A DNA stretch of 64,000 nucleotides from Escherichia coli (GCF_003018115.1 NZ_CP027457.1); one strand, 5' to 3'. Shown: positions 12,215 to 60,446, counted from the stretch's first letter. The notes: generated by a model from the sequence alone, not told the origin. Made by a program: numbers and translations.

Positions 12215-12931
12215 ATGGAAAATAAAAAATCACTGACGACAGAACAGCTCGAAGACGCTAAGCGGCTTAAGGCTTTGTATGAGTCAAAAAAGAAAGAATT
12301 GGGAATAACCCAATACTCAATCGCTGATGAACTGGGTATCACCCAAGGAGCGGTAGGGCATTATCTTAATGGCAGAAACGCGCTAAACGTTGAGGTCGCA
12401 TCTGGTTTTGCACGTTTGTTGCAAGTCTCAATTGCTGATTTTAGCCAGTCAATTGCTGCCAAGGTTGCAGAACAGGCAGAAAGCCTTAAGAGCGATGCCA
12501 ACGTAAGGTATGCAGGGGAATACAGAGCAGGAAAGAGGTATCCGGTGTTAAGCAGTATCCAGGCTGGCTCGTGGTGTGAAGCATGCGAACCATACACCAT
12601 TAAAGACATAGATGTTTGGCTTGAGTCTGACGCGCATATTCAAGGTAATGCGTTCTGGCTTAAAGTGGAAGGTGATTCAATGACGGCACCGGTTGGGTTA
12701 AGCATTCCAGAGGGAACATTCGTTCTTTTCGATACCGGAAGGGAGGCGATCAACGGCAGCTTGGTCATAGCAAAACTTTCTGACTCTAACGAAGCAACAT
12801 TCAAGAAGCTGATAATCGACGGCGGAAATAAATACCTCAAGGGACTTAATCCTGCATGGCCTCTCGTGCCAATCAATGGAAACTGCAAGATTATAGGCGT
12901 TGCAATTGAGACAAAACTAAGGCTGGTTTGA
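12215..12931 (+). CDS. cI: CI-type prophage repressor (HTH plus LexA/S24-like C-terminal domain)
   Basis: 238-aa ORF; N-terminus MENKKSLTTEQLEDAKRLKALYESKKKELGITQYSIADELGITQGAVG parallels lambda CI; C-terminus AFWLKVEGDSMTAP...FKKLI is the autocleavage domain. Confidence 0.85.
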   Translation: MENKKSLTTEQLEDAKRLKALYESKKKELGITQYSIADELGITQGAVGHYLNGRNALNVEVASGFARLLQVSIADFSQSIAAKVAEQAESLKSDANVRYAGEYRAGKRYPVLSSIQAGSWCEACEPYTIKDIDVWLESDAHIQGNAFWLKVEGDSMTAPVGLSIPEGTFVLFDTGREAINGSLVIAKLSDSNEATFKKLIIDGGNKYLKGLNPAWPLVPINGNCKIIGVAIETKLRLV

Positions 12932-15533: not shown

Positions 15534-15845
15534 ATGATGATTCTGACTCTGAATGATAAGCGTGAAATATCGCAAATAATCGCAAGTTTTACTGATGAAG
15601 ATTACGAACGAATCAACAGTGAAGTTGATCGCCTCTGCAAACGTTGCGACCCAATAAGCGAAATGCTTCGATCATATAAACCAGATGAACACACTAAGGA
15701 CGCTATCGACTGGCTGGAAGATGATGACTGTAACTATCAGGAAAAAGCCGCTGAATGGTTCTGGGATGCAATAACCGAAAGAGTTAAGGCTGAATATGCC
15801 TTCGCAATATTCAAACGCAGACATATTTATGGAGAAGCTGCATGA
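15534..15845 (+). CDS. Hypothetical protein (103 aa) at the gam/kil position
   Basis: Acidic ORF immediately upstream of and overlapping recT. Confidence 0.5.
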   Translation: MMILTLNDKREISQIIASFTDEDYERINSEVDRLCKRCDPISEMLRSYKPDEHTKDAIDWLEDDDCNYQEKAAEWFWDAITERVKAEYAFAIFKRRHIYGEAA

Positions 15846-16744
15846 GCAATATCGTTGAATTCGTTAAACAGCAAGAGCAGTTATTCTGCGGAGCATTGAC
15901 TGAACAGACGGTGACATGGGCTAAGGAAAGCCAGTTTGCAATTCAGTATTTCCAGAAAAACGATTACCTGGCTAAAACAGCACTGGCAAATCCAACCAGC
16001 GCACAGAACGCCATCATCAATGTTGCGGCGATCGGCATCACCTTAAACCCGGCCAGCAAACTGGCTTATCTGGTTCCTCGCGACGGCATGGTGTGCCTTG
16101 ATATCAGTTACATGGGATTACTTCATCTTGCGCAATCGACAGGATCAATTAAGTGGGGGCAATGCAAACTGGTGTACTCAAACGACACCTATGAATCAAA
16201 TGGCCTTGATTCAGCACCAACCCACAAATACAACGCATTTGGTGAGCGAGGCTCTATTGTTGGAGGTTATTGCACGGTTAAAACAGCAGATGGTGACTAC
16301 CTGACTGAAGAAATGAGTCTGGCAGAAATTAAAGCTGTGGAAGCAACGAGCAAGGCAAAGAATGGACCGTGGAAAACATTCTGGGAAGAGATGGCGCGTA
16401 AAACAATAGTTAAACGCGCCAGCAAATACTGGCCTAAAGCCCAGCGACTGGATAATGCCATTCACCTGCTTAACGAAGATGAAGGTGTGCATCAGGAACC
16501 AGTTATGCCGCACAAATCAGAGGAAGATATCCGCGAAGATGAACGGAAACGCCAGCAGGAAATAATGGATAAAGCACAACTTCTTTGCGATGAAATGTCT
16601 CAGGCAGAAAACATGGATGATTTGAAGCGATATTTTGCAGAAGCATATCGCCTGACATCTGGAATGAAATTGCAGCAGAACGTACAAGCCATTTACATAG
16701 AATGCAAAGCGAAACTGGAGGTTGCCAGTGAGCAAACTGTATGA
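15842..16744 (+). CDS. recT: RecT-family single-strand annealing protein
   Basis: 300-aa ORF; motif NGPWKTFWEEMARKTIVKRASKYWP matches the RecT signature. Confidence 0.8.
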   Translation: MSNIVEFVKQQEQLFCGALTEQTVTWAKESQFAIQYFQKNDYLAKTALANPTSAQNAIINVAAIGITLNPASKLAYLVPRDGMVCLDISYMGLLHLAQSTGSIKWGQCKLVYSNDTYESNGLDSAPTHKYNAFGERGSIVGGYCTVKTADGDYLTEEMSLAEIKAVEATSKAKNGPWKTFWEEMARKTIVKRASKYWPKAQRLDNAIHLLNEDEGVHQEPVMPHKSEEDIREDERKRQQEIMDKAQLLCDEMSQAENMDDLKRYFAEAYRLTSGMKLQQNVQAIYIECKAKLEVASEQTV

Positions 16745-17210
16745 AATAGCCAATGAATACGCAAAGCTGATGGATTCAGATTTAGAGCCAGAGATGATTG
16801 CTGACACAATAGAAGGCATGGAAGGAGAATTTACCGATAAAATAGAGCAACTTCTCGCCATTATTAAAAATGAATCTGGTTATGCTGAACGCCTCAAGGA
16901 AGAGGCAAAGTCACTAAATGAGAGAGCCGCAGTAATTCAAAATAAGATTGACAGCATTATGGCGTATATAGCGTCATCGCTTGAAATGGTTGGCAAGAAA
17001 AAGATTCGAGCAGGTATTCACCAGGTAACAATCCGCAAACCGTCAGAAACTGTAGAAATCATCGACTCAAGCGCCCTTCCTCCTGAATACGTTGAATTTG
17101 AAACGACAATTAAAGCCGACAAACTGGCAATCAAACACCAACTAAAAGCAGGAATAAATATCCCCGGCGCTCAACTCAAAGTTGGGAAACCTTCACTTCT
17201 TATCAAATAA
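16722..17210 (+). CDS. Siphovirus Gp157-family protein
   Basis: About 160-aa ORF overlapping recT end; resembles Gp157-family proteins that commonly accompany RecT/Erf genes; probable GTG start at 16728. Confidence 0.45.
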   Translation: MPVSKLYEIANEYAKLMDSDLEPEMIADTIEGMEGEFTDKIEQLLAIIKNESGYAERLKEEAKSLNERAAVIQNKIDSIMAYIASSLEMVGKKKIRAGIHQVTIRKPSETVEIIDSSALPPEYVEFETTIKADKLAIKHQLKAGINIPGAQLKVGKPSLLIK

Positions 17211-17221
17211 CGGTATCGCCT

Positions 17222-17536
17222 ATGAAAAAGACTCCATGGGAGAAATGGGAAGTCGATTTCTTGCGCGAAGTGGCGGCGACAATGCCAGTTGAAGTTATCG
17301 CTGAAAAACTGGAAAGGACTGAAAAAGCAGTAATGGCGAAAGCAACAAGGATTGGAGCTGACATTGTTAGCCGACTTCGTGGAAGACGCTGGACAAGAGC
17401 CGAAGTATCACTTTTCGGTAAGTTCTCCGCAGAAGAAATAGCAATTGCAACCTGCCGCTCAATTTATTCAGTAAGAGCTATGAGATACAAGCTAAAAAAA
17501 CTCGATGAAGAAAGAGCAGGCATACGAATAAATTAA
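17222..17536 (+). CDS. Hypothetical protein (104 aa) with two internal repeats (possible DNA-binding)
   Basis: Two similar segments (WEKWEVDFLREVA...AEKLERTEKAVMAKATRIG and RRWTRAEVSLF...TCRSIYSVRAMRYKLKK). Confidence 0.5.
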   Translation: MKKTPWEKWEVDFLREVAATMPVEVIAEKLERTEKAVMAKATRIGADIVSRLRGRRWTRAEVSLFGKFSAEEIAIATCRSIYSVRAMRYKLKKLDEERAGIRIN

Positions 17537-17552
17537 CATGGAGTAATTAACA

Positions 17553-17834
17553 ATGAAGCTAAACATAGACCTAGGCAAATATGTTATTACAGGAACCAAA
17601 CACGACCTGATTCTTAGTGAAAGAGGAATTATCAAAGAAGGTGAGAATGCAGGGAAAGAAACACTAAGCCGTATCGGTTATTACAGCAAGTTTGAGCATC
17701 TGGTTAAAGAGTTATGTAACCGTGAAATCCTGTTATCTCAGGCGCAGACGCTACAGGATATTCAGCAGCATATCGAAACTTTAGGTATGTCACTTAGCAT
17801 GGCTATTGACCAGTTCGTGGAGAGTAAATCATGA
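17553..17834 (+). CDS. Hypothetical protein (93 aa)
   Basis: ORF with RBS, in the early leftward operon. Confidence 0.5.
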
Positions 17835-17973
17835 GAGGACTTGCATACAATCCCGGCATTCTTCCGGCAGAAATGATTATTCGCCAACGCGTAAAACCAA
17901 TGCCATCGAGAGAGGAATTGCTTAAGAGAAATTCTTTTCCATCAGTGAATCAAAACAAATATCTGAATGCTAT

Positions 17974-18468
17974 GTGGCGGAGTGGGAAGAAATGAAACTA
18001 ATGTCACTAATTGAGATGGATGGTTTTCTGAAAGGTAAATGCATCCCACGAGATTTAAAGGTTAACGAAACAAACGCTGAATATCTGGTGCGTAAGTTCG
18101 GTGAGCTTGAATCAAAACTGGAAACGGCGTTGCGGGAGTGTCGTTCTGCTGGAATCACGATTGATAACCTTGAGGCTAAATGCGCGAAGATGGCTGCTGA
18201 AAATACCTCGCTTAAGCAATCTGAGAAGGAATTTAATGACTTTTGTCGTGAGGAGTTTAGCGAATGGGAAGATGATGTTACTGAACCCCAAGCCACCGAT
18301 GCTTTCCTGGCTGAAGTCCGGGCTAAGGCGTTTGATGACCTTTGCGCGGCGTTCGTTAAGCACGCGTCGGTGTCCGGGCTGGACGATGGCGACTGCGTTA
18401 CGGTGAAAGAGGCGACTGACGCCCTGCTGCATTGTGCGGAACAGCTTCACGAGGGAGTGCATTCATGA
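17974..18468 (+). CDS. Hypothetical acidic coiled-coil protein (about 158-164 aa)
   Basis: ORF; stop overlaps the next gene's ATG (ATGA). Confidence 0.5.
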
Positions 18469-18707
18469 GCAACCTACTACCATGTCCATTCTGTGGCGGC
18501 GCAGCGCACGTTGCCAGCGAAGCAGATCACCCTGAATATGGCTCTGGCGGTCGATTCTATTTCGTTCGATGCGGTACGTGTCGCGCTCAATCTGGTAGCA
18601 AATATGCAGCGCCTGGAAATGACTGCGCGATTTTTTATTCAGAGGTTAGAGCAGAGTGGAATCAGCGAGCAAAGGAGGCAACCAGTGAGCGGAAAAAGAA
18701 TGACTAA
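18465..18707 (+). CDS. lar: Lar-like restriction alleviation protein (CPFCGG zinc-finger)
   Basis: From ATG 18465: [42 protein letters not shown]..., the Cys pattern of the Lar family. Confidence 0.5.
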   Translation: MSNLLPCPFCGGAAHVASEADHPEYGSGGRFYFVRCGTCRAQSGSKYAAPGNDCAIFYSEVRAEWNQRAKEATSERKKND

Positions 18708-18909
18708 CAGAGAGCTTGTTGATGCCGCCATTAAGCTTGCTGGTGATTTTTATTCAATGATGGGGTACACGCATCGCCCAGGCTTCAAATATTGGGAGTC
18801 TCCGCACCCGCAAGAGCAACTGGTATTTCAAATGGCCTGCCGTGCTTTTGAGGTTATTCGCGGTTCTGATGTGATGGACGCCGTTGCCGACTTGGAGGAT
18901 GAAGAGTGA
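18685..18909 (+). CDS. Hypothetical protein (about 74 aa)
   Basis: GTG at 18685 preceded by AAAGGAGG; overlaps the Lar 3' end in another frame. Confidence 0.45.
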   Translation: MSGKRMTNRELVDAAIKLAGDFYSMMGYTHRPGFKYWESPHPQEQLVFQMACRAFEVIRGSDVMDAVADLEDEE

Positions 18910-19358
18910 GCAAGATTGACTATCAGGCACTGCGTGAAAAGGCAGAGAAAGCAACGTGTGGGGTGTGGTCGCTCGAATATGGAGAGGAGAGATTTGATGC
19001 TGATGATGCGCTAATTCATCGTGAAGTTGTTGGATATCTTCCCATTTGCAGAATTGAAGGAGCGCATCCAGAAAGCGGTTTCGATGAAGATTTCCAAATG
19101 GAACAGCAGGCCAATGCTGAATTCATCGCCGCAGCCAATCCAGCTACCGTGCTGGCGCTGCTGGATGAGCTGGAAGCCAAAGACAAGCGGATTGCTGACA
19201 TGGAGGCGCGGGAGGTTGTACTGCCGCGTGCGCACGATGTTCACCCATTAGGGCCGCAGGCGGCGAAAATTTTTTGTGAGTTTCACCGGAGTATCGTGAA
19301 CAGATGCGCCGATGAGATTCGCAAGGTTGGCATCAAAGTCAGCATCAAGGGGAATTAG
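18906..19358 (+). CDS. Ea22-like early protein
   Basis: 150-aa ORF with AAANPATVLALLDELEAKDKRIADME motif typical of Ea22-family proteins. Confidence 0.45.
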   Translation: MSKIDYQALREKAEKATCGVWSLEYGEERFDADDALIHREVVGYLPICRIEGAHPESGFDEDFQMEQQANAEFIAAANPATVLALLDELEAKDKRIADMEAREVVLPRAHDVHPLGPQAAKIFCEFHRSIVNRCADEIRKVGIKVSIKGN

Positions 19359-20153: not shown

Positions 20154-20247
20154 TGGCTAACCTGCAACTTGCCGTCAAAGGTGAATAACAATCCTCGCAC
20201 TCGCGGGGATTTCTTTTATCTGAACTCGCTATGGCGGGTTTTGTTTT

Positions 20248-20594: not shown

Positions 20595-20762
20595 ATGCAC
20601 TTCCGAGTCACAGGTGAATGGAATGGAGAGCCATTCAACAGAGTTATCGAAGCAGAGAACATCAATGACTGCTATGACCACTGGATGATATGGGCGCAGA
20701 TAGCACATGCAGAAGTAACCAATATTCGAATTGAAGAACTGAAAGAACACCAAGCCGCCTGA
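20595..20762 (+). CDS. Hypothetical protein (55 aa)
   Basis: ORF MHFRVTGEWNGEPF... ending in an intrinsic terminator. Confidence 0.4.
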   Translation: MHFRVTGEWNGEPFNRVIEAENINDCYDHWMIWAQIAHAEVTNIRIEELKEHQAA

Positions 20763-20776
20763 TGGCGGTTTTTTCT
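20753..20776 (+). terminator. Intrinsic terminator upstream of xis
   Basis: GCCGCC-TGAT-GGCGG hairpin followed by TTTTTTCTT. Confidence 0.65.
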
Positions 20777-20801: not shown

Positions 20802-21020
20802 ATGTACTTGACACTTCAGGAGTGGAACGCACGCCAGCGACGCCCAAGAAGCCTTGAAACAGTTCGTCGATGGGTGCGCGAATGCAGGATATTCCCACCA
20901 CCGGTTAAGGATGGAAGAGAGTATCTGTTCCACGAATCAGCGGTAAAGGTTGACTTAAATCGACCAGTAACAGGTAGCCTTTTGAAGAGGATCAGAAATG
21001 GGAAGAAGGCGAAGTCATGA
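20802..21020 (+). CDS. xis: Excisionase (lambda Xis-type)
   Basis: 72-aa ORF MYLTLQEWNARQRRPRSLETVRRWVRECRIFPPPVKDGREYLFHESAVKV..., recognised as lambda Xis; overlaps int start. Confidence 0.85.
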   Translation: MYLTLQEWNARQRRPRSLETVRRWVRECRIFPPPVKDGREYLFHESAVKVDLNRPVTGSLLKRIRNGKKAKS

Positions 21021-22068
21021 GCGCCGGGATTTACCCCCTAACCTTTATATAAGAAACAATGGATATTACTGCTACAGGGACCCAAGGACGGGTAAAGAGT
21101 TCGGATTAGGCAGAGACAGGAGGATAGCAATCACTGAAGCTATACAGGCCAACATTGAGTTATTTTCAGGACACAAACACAAGCCTCTGACAGCGAGAAT
21201 CAACAGTGATAATTCTGTTACGTTACATTCATGGCTTGATCGCTACGAAAAAATCCTCGCCAGCAGAGGAATCAAGCAGAAGACACTCATAAATTACATG
21301 AGCAAAATTAAAGCAATAAGGAGGGGGCTGCCTGATGTTCCACTTGAAGACATCACCACAAAAGAAATTGCGGCAATGCTCAATGGATACATAGACGAGG
21401 GCAAGGCGGCATCAGCCAAGTTAATCAGATCAACACTGAGCGATGCATTCCGAGAGGCTATAGCTGAAGGCCATATAACAACAAACCCGGTCGCTGCTAC
21501 TCGCGCAGCAAAATCAGAGGTAAGGAGATCAAGGCTTACGGCTGACGAATACCTGAAAATTTATCAAGCAGCAGAATCATCACCATGTTGGTTAAGACTT
21601 GCAATGGAACTGGCTGTTGTTACCGGACAGCGAGTTGGTGATTTATGCGAAATGAAGTGGTCTGATATCGTAGATGGATATCTTTATGTCGAGCAAAGCA
21701 AAACAGGCGTAAAAATTGCCATCCCAACAGCATTGCATGTTGATGCTCTCGGAATATCAATGAAGGAAACACTTGATAAATGCAAAGAGATTCTTGGCGG
21801 AGAAACCATAATTGCATCTACTCGTCGTGAACCGCTTTCATCCGGCACAGTATCAAGGTATTTTATGCGCGCACGAAAAGCATCAGGTCTTTCCTTCGAA
21901 GGGGATCCGCCTACCTTTCACGAGTTGCGCAGTTTGTCTGCAAGACTCTATGAGAAGCAGATAAGCGATAAGTTTGCTCAACATCTTCTCGGGCATAAGT
22001 CGGACACCATGGCATCACAGTATCGTGATGACAGAGGCAGGGAGTGGGACAAAATTGAAATCAAATAA
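20998..22068 (+). CDS. int: Tyrosine integrase (lambda Int-type, 356 aa)
   Basis: 356-aa ORF MGRRRSHERRDLPPNLYIRNNGYYCYRDPRTGKEFGLGRDRR..., recognised as lambda Int; transcribed toward the att junction. Confidence 0.9.
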   Translation: MGRRRSHERRDLPPNLYIRNNGYYCYRDPRTGKEFGLGRDRRIAITEAIQANIELFSGHKHKPLTARINSDNSVTLHSWLDRYEKILASRGIKQKTLINYMSKIKAIRRGLPDVPLEDITTKEIAAMLNGYIDEGKAASAKLIRSTLSDAFREAIAEGHITTNPVAATRAAKSEVRRSRLTADEYLKIYQAAESSPCWLRLAMELAVVTGQRVGDLCEMKWSDIVDGYLYVEQSKTGVKIAIPTALHVDALGISMKETLDKCKEILGGETIIASTRREPLSSGTVSRYFMRARKASGLSFEGDPPTFHELRSLSARLYEKQISDKFAQHLLGHKSDTMASQYRDDRGREWDKIEIK

Positions 22069-57997: not shown

Positions 57998-58451
57998 AAT
58001 CAACCAAATATGTTAATTATGTATAAACCATAGATCATTGGTGATTTTATTGTTAATTTATTGTGAAATATTTATGCAACACAATTATTACAATGAAAAG
58101 GTATAGATAAAAAACCAGTATTTTATTTAACAGAACCGCCTTATCCACTTTTTATAATACCAATTGATTAGAGTAGCCAATTTGTTGCTATTTTACATAA
58201 CATATTTTTATCAAAGTTAATTGATTGTTGCCTTTATGAGCACCGACCGTAAGCCCGTTATGTTATTGTTTCATTAGTAATAATCACTTAAATGTATCGA
58301 TGAAACAGGTATGACTTACCGGGAGTGATTGTTTCTGAGTGAACAGAGGCCACTTTCGCCTGATAAATGAAAAATGAGCGATTTTTGCAAGTTAGTTTTT
58401 CTATAGCCGAGTACGCTCAGCGCCTCGCTTGATTACAATGAGGTTGCTGCT

Positions 58452-59396
58452 ATGAGTCCTGATAATATCGGTTCGGCTGTCAATCGCTTCTCAGGTTGGC
58501 CATCTAATGATCCTCTAAAAACAGATGAAGAATCAATGACATCACCCGTGACTGTGCAAGTAATAAAGATGATTGCCGCCATCCTTGACCCACATCGGAT
58601 AGTCGGTGGAATTGATACACTTTATACAACGCAGCGCGAAACATTTACCTCAGAGAGTCAACAGCTCATTGAATCAGCATTGCAAACACTTCATGTGATG
58701 AATTTAAATAATCTGGAAACAAATCGCGATGAAGAAGGTCACTATCTGGCTTTTGAATATAACGTTGACACCTCTGACAGAATAACCGTTTCTGCTTATA
58801 ATGAAAAAAAGCCTGGCTGCTATGGCCAATGTCTTTTAATACAGGATGACGAAACAGACTTATTTAACCTGATAAAAATTAAAATTTTCGAAGCCAGGCA
58901 TAATTATGTCGCTCAATTGATGAGCGATCCGGAATTTATGTTCAAATTCAGTTATAGCGCTCAACAAAATAGATTAGAACCTCATCTTCTGGTTCCCGCT
59001 TATTTCCCTCTAAAAACAAACGAACCGGTTACGCAAGAGGATGTACTGTTACTTTATCGTTTCTTTAAAATGAATGATGATTTTAATAAATTAACATCAG
59101 AGGAATACATGAGTATCATGACTCCTCTGATGAAGTGTGAGCGTAGCGTCCACGACAACAACAGGTATGTGACGGGCAAAGATACCCTTCTTCTGGACTA
59201 TCCTCCTTCTGGTAACCAGATACATTTCCATATTTTCCCTGACGAATCAGCAACACTAGTCCTTTATTTTTCAAACAATGACCTTGAATGTTTCGTCTTT
59301 GAAAGAGATATTCCTAGCCAGTATCGCTTTTTCAAAATGTTTACCAATCTGGCACTGGTTATAGATCAGTTAACCGAAGCCAATAAAATACTTTAA
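58452..59396 (+). CDS. Hypothetical protein (314 aa), AT-rich, no family recognised; internal YRFFKM repeat
   Basis: Long ORF in a very AT-rich segment; motif LYRFFKMNDDF / QYRFFKMFTNL occurs twice. Confidence 0.55.
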   Translation: MSPDNIGSAVNRFSGWPSNDPLKTDEESMTSPVTVQVIKMIAAILDPHRIVGGIDTLYTTQRETFTSESQQLIESALQTLHVMNLNNLETNRDEEGHYLAFEYNVDTSDRITVSAYNEKKPGCYGQCLLIQDDETDLFNLIKIKIFEARHNYVAQLMSDPEFMFKFSYSAQQNRLEPHLLVPAYFPLKTNEPVTQEDVLLLYRFFKMNDDFNKLTSEEYMSIMTPLMKCERSVHDNNRYVTGKDTLLLDYPPSGNQIHFHIFPDESATLVLYFSNNDLECFVFERDIPSQYRFFKMFTNLALVIDQLTEANKIL

Positions 59397-59476
59397 TTTT
59401 CTATATATCCCTATGGCAAATATTGCTAAACAATGCCTGGGGATTAATTTTTATTACTCACGGAAAGATTTAAATA

Positions 59477-59899
59477 ATGATACCATCTCAGATCTCTTTC
59501 AATACCCTTCCAGTCAATGCAACATACGCTTCAGAGACAACAGTTGACACACAAAAATTCTCTGACATCCTCTACTCAGCGGGGTGTTCCCTAAAGGATA
59601 TGGCTTATCTGAGCAGATGTCTGGCATCAATACACCCGACTCTCGCCAAAAACATTTATGAAACAGAAAATCTCAGCGATCAAAAATTACTGCATATTGA
59701 TTGCCGTAGTACAAATGACATCAAGATAAATATCTTTTTTGGTCAGCAACGAGAAGGATTAATTGAAATTAGTTCTGACACAGTTATTTTTTCGATACTG
59801 TCTTCATTGATTGACTCCGCCATTTCTAAATTTCAACATCAAAACCCCGTTAACGGTTCAGTTAATCCTGAACTATTGTATGAGGATTATACTGATTAA
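59477..59899 (+). CDS. Hypothetical protein (140 aa), AT-rich, acidic C-terminus
   Basis: ORF 80 bp downstream of the 314-aa gene, same strand. Confidence 0.5.
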   Translation: MIPSQISFNTLPVNATYASETTVDTQKFSDILYSAGCSLKDMAYLSRCLASIHPTLAKNIYETENLSDQKLLHIDCRSTNDIKINIFFGQQREGLIEISSDTVIFSILSSLIDSAISKFQHQNPVNGSVNPELLYEDYTD

Positions 59900-60446
59900 A
59901 CCCACCCAGTCGCGAAAAATGGCCTGCGTTATTGCCAGACGTAATAAAACCGTTGATTAACGTTACTCATACTGGTAGCACCTTCATGTACCTCTCTTTT
60001 TTACGAAAAATCAAAAGAGCTAACTAAGGTCATAATTCGCATGAATCATTAACCATTTGTTATTTTCAACATTATTTTTACATTAAGCAGAGATGAATTG
60101 CAGTGAAATTCGACTTAAATCTTATGAAATGCATTTACTCATGGCTAAAACCACGTCACAAAAATGCAAATTAGAAGTAGATCACAATTATCTCAATACA
60201 TTAAATCAAGTTAATTTTAAAAATTTAACATTCATGTCATTAGTTGACATAACACACTGAATTAACATGGAAATTTAAAAACACACTTTAAACAATCATT
60301 TCCCGAAAGACATTTTGAAAATAGATCAATTGCAACATTACGGTCAGATAAAGACACTCCTGTGATATTAAACCTGTGCCGTTATGAACGGCCATAAATA
60401 CGACGTGTGTAACTTATTTTACTCTCTGTCTTACAAAGGATTACCC

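Follow-up and report, generated by a model that had tools for sequence, protein, structure and literature searches.

Background

In phage P22, the genes that correspond to the present locus run in the order erf-abc1-abc2-orf56 (DUF2737)-eaE. The product of the second, Abc1 ('anti-RecBCD protein 1', gp35), aids recombination and is non-essential, and its role is unknown (PMC12315714, PMC9836394). [quoted passage not shown] In the same screen abc1 showed a counter-defence phenotype and increased the fitness of phage in a number of wild E. coli hosts, and AP-MS of Abc1 gave no clear target or partner (PMC12373910). In phage HK620, a gene labelled 'abc1' by position alone proved to be an SSB (PMC5928155), and for this reason homology to Abc1 was tested in the present work and not assumed. 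Two further systems bear on the locus. The D5 protein of phage T5 carries the annotation of a DNA-binding protein on which replication, late transcription and shut-off depend, and genes of the exo-xis region of phage lambda influence the lysis-lysogeny decision (PMC3824215, PMC7093339).

Here we analyse four small genes that follow the recombination genes of an Escherichia coli prophage and describe the product of the first of them, a basic protein of 104 aa with two predicted HTH modules, as a probable remote homologue of Abc1.

Four packed genes of an early operon

The window, a stretch of 64,000 nucleotides of E. coli DNA (GCF_003018115.1, NZ_CP027457.1), carries a lambdoid (lambda-like) prophage. 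After the cI-type repressor gene, an unbroken run of genes on the + strand extends to xis and int at 20802-22068, and this run is the PL ('early-left') operon, read rightward in window coordinates. A reading made from the sequence alone (the sequence-only reading) had assigned the genes at 17222-18468 to an early leftward operon, and the assignment is borne out by the position of the cI-type repressor gene, by the continuous gene run, and by the finding of no sigma-70-like promoter and no + strand terminator-like site within 17222-18468. The region consists of four tightly packed genes of this operon just past the recombination genes, in the order recT-gp157-104aa-DUF5405-DUF2737-EaE-like. From the 104-aa gene region through Lar, three of the five junctions are ATGA start/stop overlaps, namely those from DUF5405 to DUF2737, from DUF2737 to the 158-aa gene, and from the 158-aa gene to Lar. 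The features are collected in Table 1.

Table 1 Features of the prophage region, in window coordinates
Feature	Position	Strand	Evidence or remark
cI-type repressor gene (HTH_3 + Peptidase_S24)	12215-12931		
RecT gene	15842-16744	+	Pfam RecT E 2.7e-33; start of recombination module 15842..17210
Gp157 family gene	16722/16728-17210	+	Pfam Sipho_Gp157 E 1e-36; phrog_253
104-aa basic protein gene, two predicted HTH modules, probably Abc1-like	17222..17536	+	ORF; phrog_323 E 2.8e-20; AF2 pLDDT 86.3
Predicted HTH repeat 1 (residues 5-45; helices 8-17, 23-30, 34-44)	17234..17356	+	Array-repeat profile E 1.7e-12; AF2
Predicted HTH repeat 2 (residues 55-93; helices 59-66, 70-77, 81-99)	17384..17500	+	hhalign vs repeat 1, vs Abc1; AF2
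93-aa DUF5405 protein gene (Sf6 gp24 family)	17553..17834	+	
54-aa DUF2737 gene (P22 orf56 / HK97 gp38 family)	17831..17995	+	Pfam 107.7 bits; ATGA overlap with DUF5405 stop
158-aa P22 EaE-like / HK97 gp37-like gene	17992..18468	+	phrog_614 E 2.1e-54; ATGA overlap with DUF2737 stop
Lar-family restriction-alleviation gene	18465..18707	+	Pfam Lar_restr_allev 38.1 bits
Ead/Ea22-family gene	18906-19358		After Lar
Lambda-type excisionase (xis) gene	20802-21020	+	
Lambda-type integrase (int) gene	20998-22068	+	

The sequence-only reading had listed three genes in this interval. The ORFs of 104 and 93 aa are present exactly as it described them, and a fourth gene, the 54-aa DUF2737 gene, had been missed. 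For the last gene, given as roughly 160 aa, the end at 18468 was correct and the exact product is a protein of 158 aa; its start is most likely the ATG at 17992 and not the GTG at 17974, since the ATG overlaps the DUF2737 stop as ATGA and is also the start used by RefSeq. To call these genes unrecognised was too strong, as they belong to the families phrog_323/Abc1-like, DUF5405, DUF2737 and phrog_614/P22 EaE, respectively. None of them showed clear homology to structural or housekeeping proteins. Among the neighbouring genes, the Lar gene was matched below the cut-off by NCBIfam, and phrog_253, the family of the Gp157 protein, carries the PHROG label 'Mu Gam-like end protection'. The 104-aa protein (pI 10.0) and the DUF2737 protein (pI 11) are basic, and the 158-aa protein is acidic (pI 4.7).

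The annotations of E. coli JCKP02 and of phages HK140, mEpX1, Louie and Gally show the same gene arrangement, and the copies of the 104-aa protein in HK140 and mEpX1 are 99-100% identical. The gene was found in 298 of 5426 complete E. coli genomes, where the annotation is always 'hypothetical protein'. Comparison with the copy in Salmonella phage SEN22 gave a dN/dS of 0.065, and the ORF is a real coding gene under strong purifying selection. The region as a whole is ordinary, widespread lambdoid accessory DNA, and its genes are members of known, uncharacterised families.

A predicted duplicated helix-turn-helix module in the 104-aa protein

Two similar helical segments and a tandem HTH-like fold had been proposed for the 104-aa protein from its sequence. 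At the level of the raw sequence the similarity is at chance level, with a best Smith-Waterman score between the two halves of 21 against 22 +/- 4 for 1000 shuffles. At the level of family profiles it is clear, since hhalign aligned the N-terminal half with the C-terminal half at a probability of 95.7% and an E value of 8.8e-9 over 40 columns with one 4-residue gap. A narrow, gap-free HMM of the repeat matched repeat 1 and not repeat 2, because repeat 2 has a 4-residue deletion, its span from helix 1 to helix 2 being shorter than that of repeat 1 by 4 residues. Across the family alignment, W6 and W57 are invariant. The AlphaFold2 model, built from a 23-sequence alignment, has a mean pLDDT of 86.3 and contains two three-helix bundles with the helices listed in Table 1; its pTM of 0.50 leaves the mutual orientation of the two bundles undefined. 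The proposed tandem fold is thus upheld by the comparison of the halves, by the model and by the kind of protein at the top of the structural search, in which the matches to the PDB with Foldseek, none of them with E < 0.1 and hence non-significant, were led by bipartite HTH DNA binders, including the CRISPR-repeat-binding protein Cbp1 (2lvs), the Pax6 paired domain, Tc3/Mos1 and LuxR-type proteins. Pfam returned HTH_12 as the sole match to the 104-aa protein, below threshold. No significant match in the PDB was obtained for the 104-, 93- or 158-aa protein by sequence or profile search, the best profile matches of the 104-aa protein being weak ones to NarL/RcsB (E 0.006-0.1).

The relatives of the protein extend the picture of a repeated unit. 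In relatives of 152 aa the HTH unit is present a third time, and an exhaustive HMMER search collected 532 representative proteins at E<=1e-3, many of them 200-900 aa long and matching through 3-10 separate stretches. In the array proteins that were examined among these 532 representatives, the unit is ~45 residues long and is recognised by Pfam as Myb_DNA-binding, GcrA or Sigma70_r4_2; one of them (P0055) matched Myb_DNA-binding at E 2e-41 in 7 stretches. Some of the array relatives are fused to a helicase or an integrase. A profile made from the repeats of two array proteins matched residues 5-45 of the 104-aa protein with an E value of 1.7e-12. The HTH module is also present in 3-10-copy arrays of other phage and mobile-element proteins.

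By profiles and the predicted model, the module is a ~40-residue three-helix HTH of the Myb/SANT, GcrA-N and sigma-region-4 type, and it is present in duplicate. The alternative of a single novel helical domain, in which the duplication would be a chance likeness between amphipathic helices, would agree with a raw self-alignment no better than shuffles and with a gap-free HMM that matched repeat 1 alone, and it is made highly improbable by the profile-profile comparison of the halves, by the existence of three-repeat and many-repeat relatives, by the match of half 2 alone to the C-terminal repeat of Abc1 (E 2.6e-8), and by the two separate bundles of the model.

Probable remote homology to P22 Abc1

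A protein identical to the 104-aa protein is annotated in phage Gally as 'Anti-RecBCD protein 1, similar to P22 Abc1'. Pairwise searches did not connect the two, as BLASTP of the 104-aa protein against P22 Abc1 gave no alignment, and tblastn against 50,697 phage records recovered near-identical copies only and did not reach P22. Both proteins match phrog_323, the 104-aa protein with an E value of 2.8e-20 and P22 Abc1 with 1.3e-23. When the families were compared with hhalign, residues 16-93 aligned collinearly with Abc1 residues 13-93 over 76 columns, with a probability of 96% and an E value of 4.7e-9. The score of 50.8 compares with 11.0 +/- 2.6 (maximum 21.4) for 200 column-shuffled Abc1 alignments and with 8.6 for the reversed alignment. 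The HTH controls scored 30 (NarL C-terminus), 26 (GcrA N-terminus), 20 (c-Myb R2R3) and <=18 (Cro/cI/Xis), the four external ones among these control sequences being approximate. The signal comes mainly from the C-terminal repeat, with half 2 of the 104-aa protein matching Abc1 residues 50-93 at E 2.6e-8 and the N-terminal halves being weakly similar (E 0.0085).

The two proteins are also alike in other respects. They are similar in length (94 aa in Abc1, 104 aa here) and in pI (10.28 and 10.0), both appear to have two HTH modules, those of Abc1 being read from its sequence and Pfam matches only, and both have a W-x2-E...IA..(L/T)xR(S/T)..(A/S)V repeat in the C-terminal half. In P22 as in the window, the gene immediately follows the recombinase module, and DUF2737 and an EaE-type gene lie downstream of it. 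They differ in that the N-terminal module of Abc1 is without the W/E signature, and in their partners, as P22 pairs Abc1 with Erf and Abc2, whereas the partners here are RecT and Gp157; Abc2 (PF11043) is absent from the window, and the gene that follows the 104-aa gene is DUF5405. These comparisons suggest that the 104-aa protein is a remote, collinear homologue and the positional equivalent of P22 Abc1. HTH repeats are promiscuous, and common ancestry of the module is no proof of common function.

Gene order and the mosaic boundary

The genes of divergent relatives of the 104-aa protein (38-59% identity) immediately follow the final gene of recombination modules of other kinds. The arrangements, with the length of the relative in brackets, are RecT-YqaJ-[99 aa]-DUF2737, Gam-x-YqaJ-[152 aa]-Dam, DUF3799-x-[95 aa], YqaJ-[99 aa] and, in SEN22, exoVIII-x-[104 aa]-DUF2737. 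In every context examined, the gene comes straight after the last gene of a recombination module, and these modules are of several types; in the window it closes the conserved RecT-Gp157 block.

The boundary of the conserved block was followed in 80 viral contigs from IMG/VR, which carry near-identical alleles and are not independent. Gp157 lies immediately upstream of the 104-aa gene in 80/80 of these contigs, and DUF2737 is likewise present in 80/80. Between the two genes, DUF5405 is found in 36/80, and it is followed by DUF2737 in all 36. Past DUF2737 the content varies, with EaE-like genes in 39 of the 80 contigs, Ead/Ea22 in 51 and Lar in 2. By this pattern the mosaic junction falls behind DUF2737, and the 104-aa gene belongs to the conserved recombination block, the content being constant up to DUF2737 and variable beyond it. 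DUF2737 is always present as a partner, DUF5405 may or may not be inserted, and the EaE-like gene opens the variable 'ea' region.

The DUF5405, DUF2737 and EaE-like proteins

The 93-aa protein matched Pfam DUF5405 (PF17399) with 25.8 bits against a cut-off of 21.6 and phrog_154 with an E value of 1e-31, and DUF5405 was found in 341 of 5426 E. coli genomes. Its predicted structure is confident (pLDDT 90.8, pTM 0.75) and consists of four strands followed by two helices. For this model no solved structural relative was found, and the search of BFVD returned uncharacterised proteins of ~90-100 aa only, from phages of Salmonella, Morganella, Bacillus, Lactobacillus and Cellulophaga. The label 'replication initiation protein' that PHROG gives to phrog_154 receives no support from the fold comparison. 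DUF5405 was also considered as a positional replacement for Abc2, and this was ruled out by the order Abc2-DUF5405-DUF2737 in O104:H4 and O157:H7 prophages.

The 54-aa protein matched DUF2737 (PF10930) over its full length with 107.7 bits against a cut-off of 25, and P22 orf56 matches the same Pfam and PHROG families. The 158-aa protein aligned with P22 EaE by BLASTP (E 4e-20) over residues 60-133 only, and both proteins match phrog_614; its N- and C-terminal parts are mosaic relative to EaE, and its central part gave only weak matches of the coiled-coil type. NCBIfam returned nothing meaningful for any of the four genes, and a full-text literature search found no paper that mentions DUF5405 or DUF2737. 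P22-, HK97-, Sf6- and lambda-like phages repeatedly carry DUF5405, DUF2737 and EaE-like genes in this slot, and the three families are without known function.

Function of the 104-aa protein

Given the similarity to Abc1 and the position of the gene, we favour the reading of the 104-aa protein as an accessory factor of the recombination module that is of the Abc1 type and binds DNA with its two HTH modules, with a probability of roughly 0.5. Each module would contact duplex DNA with its third helix (residues 34-44 and 81-99), in the manner of bipartite HTH proteins, and the protein would, like Abc1, assist the phage recombination or RecBCD-handling module as a dispensable helper and not act as a classical operon repressor.

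Were the protein a free-standing regulator, the placement of its family directly after five kinds of recombination module, often with a start/stop overlap, would be difficult to account for. Such a regulator, sequence-specific, acting on phage, host or satellite promoters and having no direct role in recombination, would nevertheless fit the PHROG label of phrog_323 ('transcriptional regulator, D5-like') and the annotation of T5 D5, a protein with repeats of this type, as necessary for late transcription and shut-off, and the position after the Rec genes would then reflect the mosaic boundary. NarL/RcsB-type HTHs as the best, though weak, profile matches in the PDB and the NarL control at E 2e-5 point in the same direction, as do the GcrA-like matches of the array relatives and the proposal of Silas et al. 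that Abc1 disturbs P4 transcriptional control and so brings about P4-dependent death (10.1101/2023.04.06.535777). Neither an effector nor an oligomerisation domain is present in the 104-aa protein, and a non-exhaustive look for candidate operator repeats identified none; we regard a purely transcriptional role as rather unlikely.

A further alternative concerns all four small proteins, at least one of which could be an anti-defence or host-takeover factor that works through protein-protein contact, for example through a SANT-like use of the helical bundles or through inhibition of a host nuclease or defence system by the DUF5405, DUF2737 or EaE-like protein. The sequence-only reading had pointed to roles of this kind, for which the backing is indirect. 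The neighbourhood suits this idea, with Lar nearby and Ral and Abc2 in related phages as counter-defence genes, and with highly variable genes downstream, as is typical for accessory regions. Also in its favour are the gain in phage fitness that P22 abc1 conferred in several wild E. coli hosts (PMC12373910) and the DUF5405 protein, which has a confident fold without a solved relative and, at ~90-100 aa, a wide distribution in phages of Gram-negative and Gram-positive hosts. Against it, AP-MS of Abc1 yielded no clear partner (PMC12373910), and the 104-aa and DUF2737 proteins, with their high pI, look more like binders of nucleic acid than like mimics of DNA. PADLOC, which models defence and not anti-defence proteins, gave no significant match for the four genes, the only match being a weak one of the EaE-like protein to SspC with an E value of 0.02, and none of the four exact protein sequences was found in the supplementary files of the screen of Silas et al. 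Overall, a role through protein contact seems improbable.

Abc1-type double-HTH genes accompany at least five kinds of recombination module (Erf, RecT+Gp157, RecT+YqaJ, Gam/YqaJ and DUF3799), and this range hints that their role is independent of a specific recombinase or of Abc2. A bolder reading, which we put forward as a long shot, is that the Abc1-like double-HTH protein and the small basic DUF2737 protein together form an unrecognised, conserved terminal part of lambdoid recombination modules that is independent of the recombinase, the HTH protein either targeting the recombination or RecBCD-handling machinery to particular DNA or manipulating the host as a general regulator and, in doing so, also setting off abortive systems encoded by satellites or prophages. 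If this were true, the 99-100% identical copies in HK140 and mEpX1 would make the decades-old question of Abc1 tractable in E. coli phages. The current understanding of phage biology is unchanged by these results, as the genes are uncharacterised members of known families. The link to Abc1 improves the annotation of a gene that ~5% of complete E. coli genomes carry as a 'hypothetical protein'.

Comparison with other known systems

The slot between the recombination genes and xis/int is shared with the lambda exo-xis region (orf60a, orf61, orf63, ea22, ea8.5) and with the P22 'ea' genes, and the genes here are likewise early-expressed, small, mosaic and mostly of unknown function. The named families of those regions that occur here are limited to the EaE-like and Ead/Ea22 genes, and no match to the Pfam families that we take to represent the lambda exo-xis ORFs was obtained for the 104-aa, DUF5405 and DUF2737 proteins.

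In T5 D5, residues 141-230, which comprise two consecutive repeats, aligned collinearly with the 104-aa family in hhalign (probability 88%, E 3e-6), and by this remote homology D5 carries the same type of repeat. D5 differs in its length of 255 aa, in having about four repeats (counted by eye from the sequence) and in its setting among the replication genes of a lytic phage, and its similarity to the 104-aa protein is weaker than that of Abc1.

Among known folds, Myb/SANT (PF00249, PF13921), GcrA-N (PF07750) and the sigma-70 r4/LuxR HTH resemble the predicted module in the three-helix bundle, in a conserved aromatic residue that opens helix 1 and in a recognition-type third helix, and their Pfam thresholds are passed by the multi-repeat relatives and not by the 104-aa protein. 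Against approximate sequences of these proteins, hhalign gave moderate matches to the NarL C-terminus (E 2e-5) and the GcrA N-terminus (E 8.5e-5) and a weak one to c-Myb R2R3 (E 0.006). Unlike GcrA, the 104-aa protein is without a C-terminal sigma-binding domain, and unlike NarL, it is without a receiver domain. As in Myb R2R3, its two tandem repeats could contact adjacent grooves of the DNA.

Repeat architecture of relatives of the 104-aa protein

Three relatives of the 104-aa protein, P0055, P0057 and P0119, carry arrays of the same ~45-residue HTH unit, with up to 10 stretches matched. In P0055 (807 aa) the array is fused to a ResIII/Helicase_C helicase, while P0119 (651 aa) joins a shorter array to a tyrosine integrase; array proteins built on this unit are a large repeat-protein family. 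In a Salmonella prophage, a 152-aa variant with three repeats is flanked by a gene for a YqaJ exonuclease on one side and one for a Dam methylase on the other. The HTH module is similar to the DNA-binding domain of GcrA, a domain that reads methylated DNA, and because of this resemblance it is conceivable that the module would bind DNA in a methylation-dependent mode.

Neighboring genes and transcriptional context

The 103-aa ORF overlapping the start of RecT had no match in Pfam and was found alongside RecT in 76 of the 80 related viral contigs, which are not independent samples; it may therefore be an uncharacterized component of the recombination module. The window carries an intact DUF2737 gene and all 80 contigs have DUF2737, whereas in E. 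coli JCKP02, the closest complete genome, it is annotated as a frameshifted pseudogene (L001:5832-5995). The combination of the EaE-like gene with Lar is rare, as Lar occupies the corresponding place in only two of the 80. For the small ORF that follows Lar, also unmatched in Pfam, there are two possible starts, GTG at 18685, preceded by the strong Shine-Dalgarno sequence AAGGAGG, and ATG at 18700; in the mechanical ORF list it has a length of 138 aa and overlaps Lar.

At a great distance from the early region of the prophage, the G+C content of window positions 58001-60000 falls to 0.367 against ~0.50 in the flanks, and this segment may be an island or insertion.

Positions of features discussed in the text
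Feature	Position	Strand	Remark
103-aa ORF	15534-15845	+	Overlaps RecT start
Lar-family restriction-alleviation gene	18465-18707	+	ATGA overlap with EaE-like gene
Small ORF, 69-74 aa	18685-18909	+	Directly 3′ of Lar
Two terminator-like hairpins	20190-20241	+	Each followed by T-run; shortly 5′ of xis
One terminator-like hairpin	20752-20771	+	Followed by T-run; shortly 5′ of xis
Locus with 152-aa three-repeat variant	L006:4001-5007		Salmonella prophage locus

The position of the hairpins before xis is comparable to that of an annotated rho-independent terminator in HK140.
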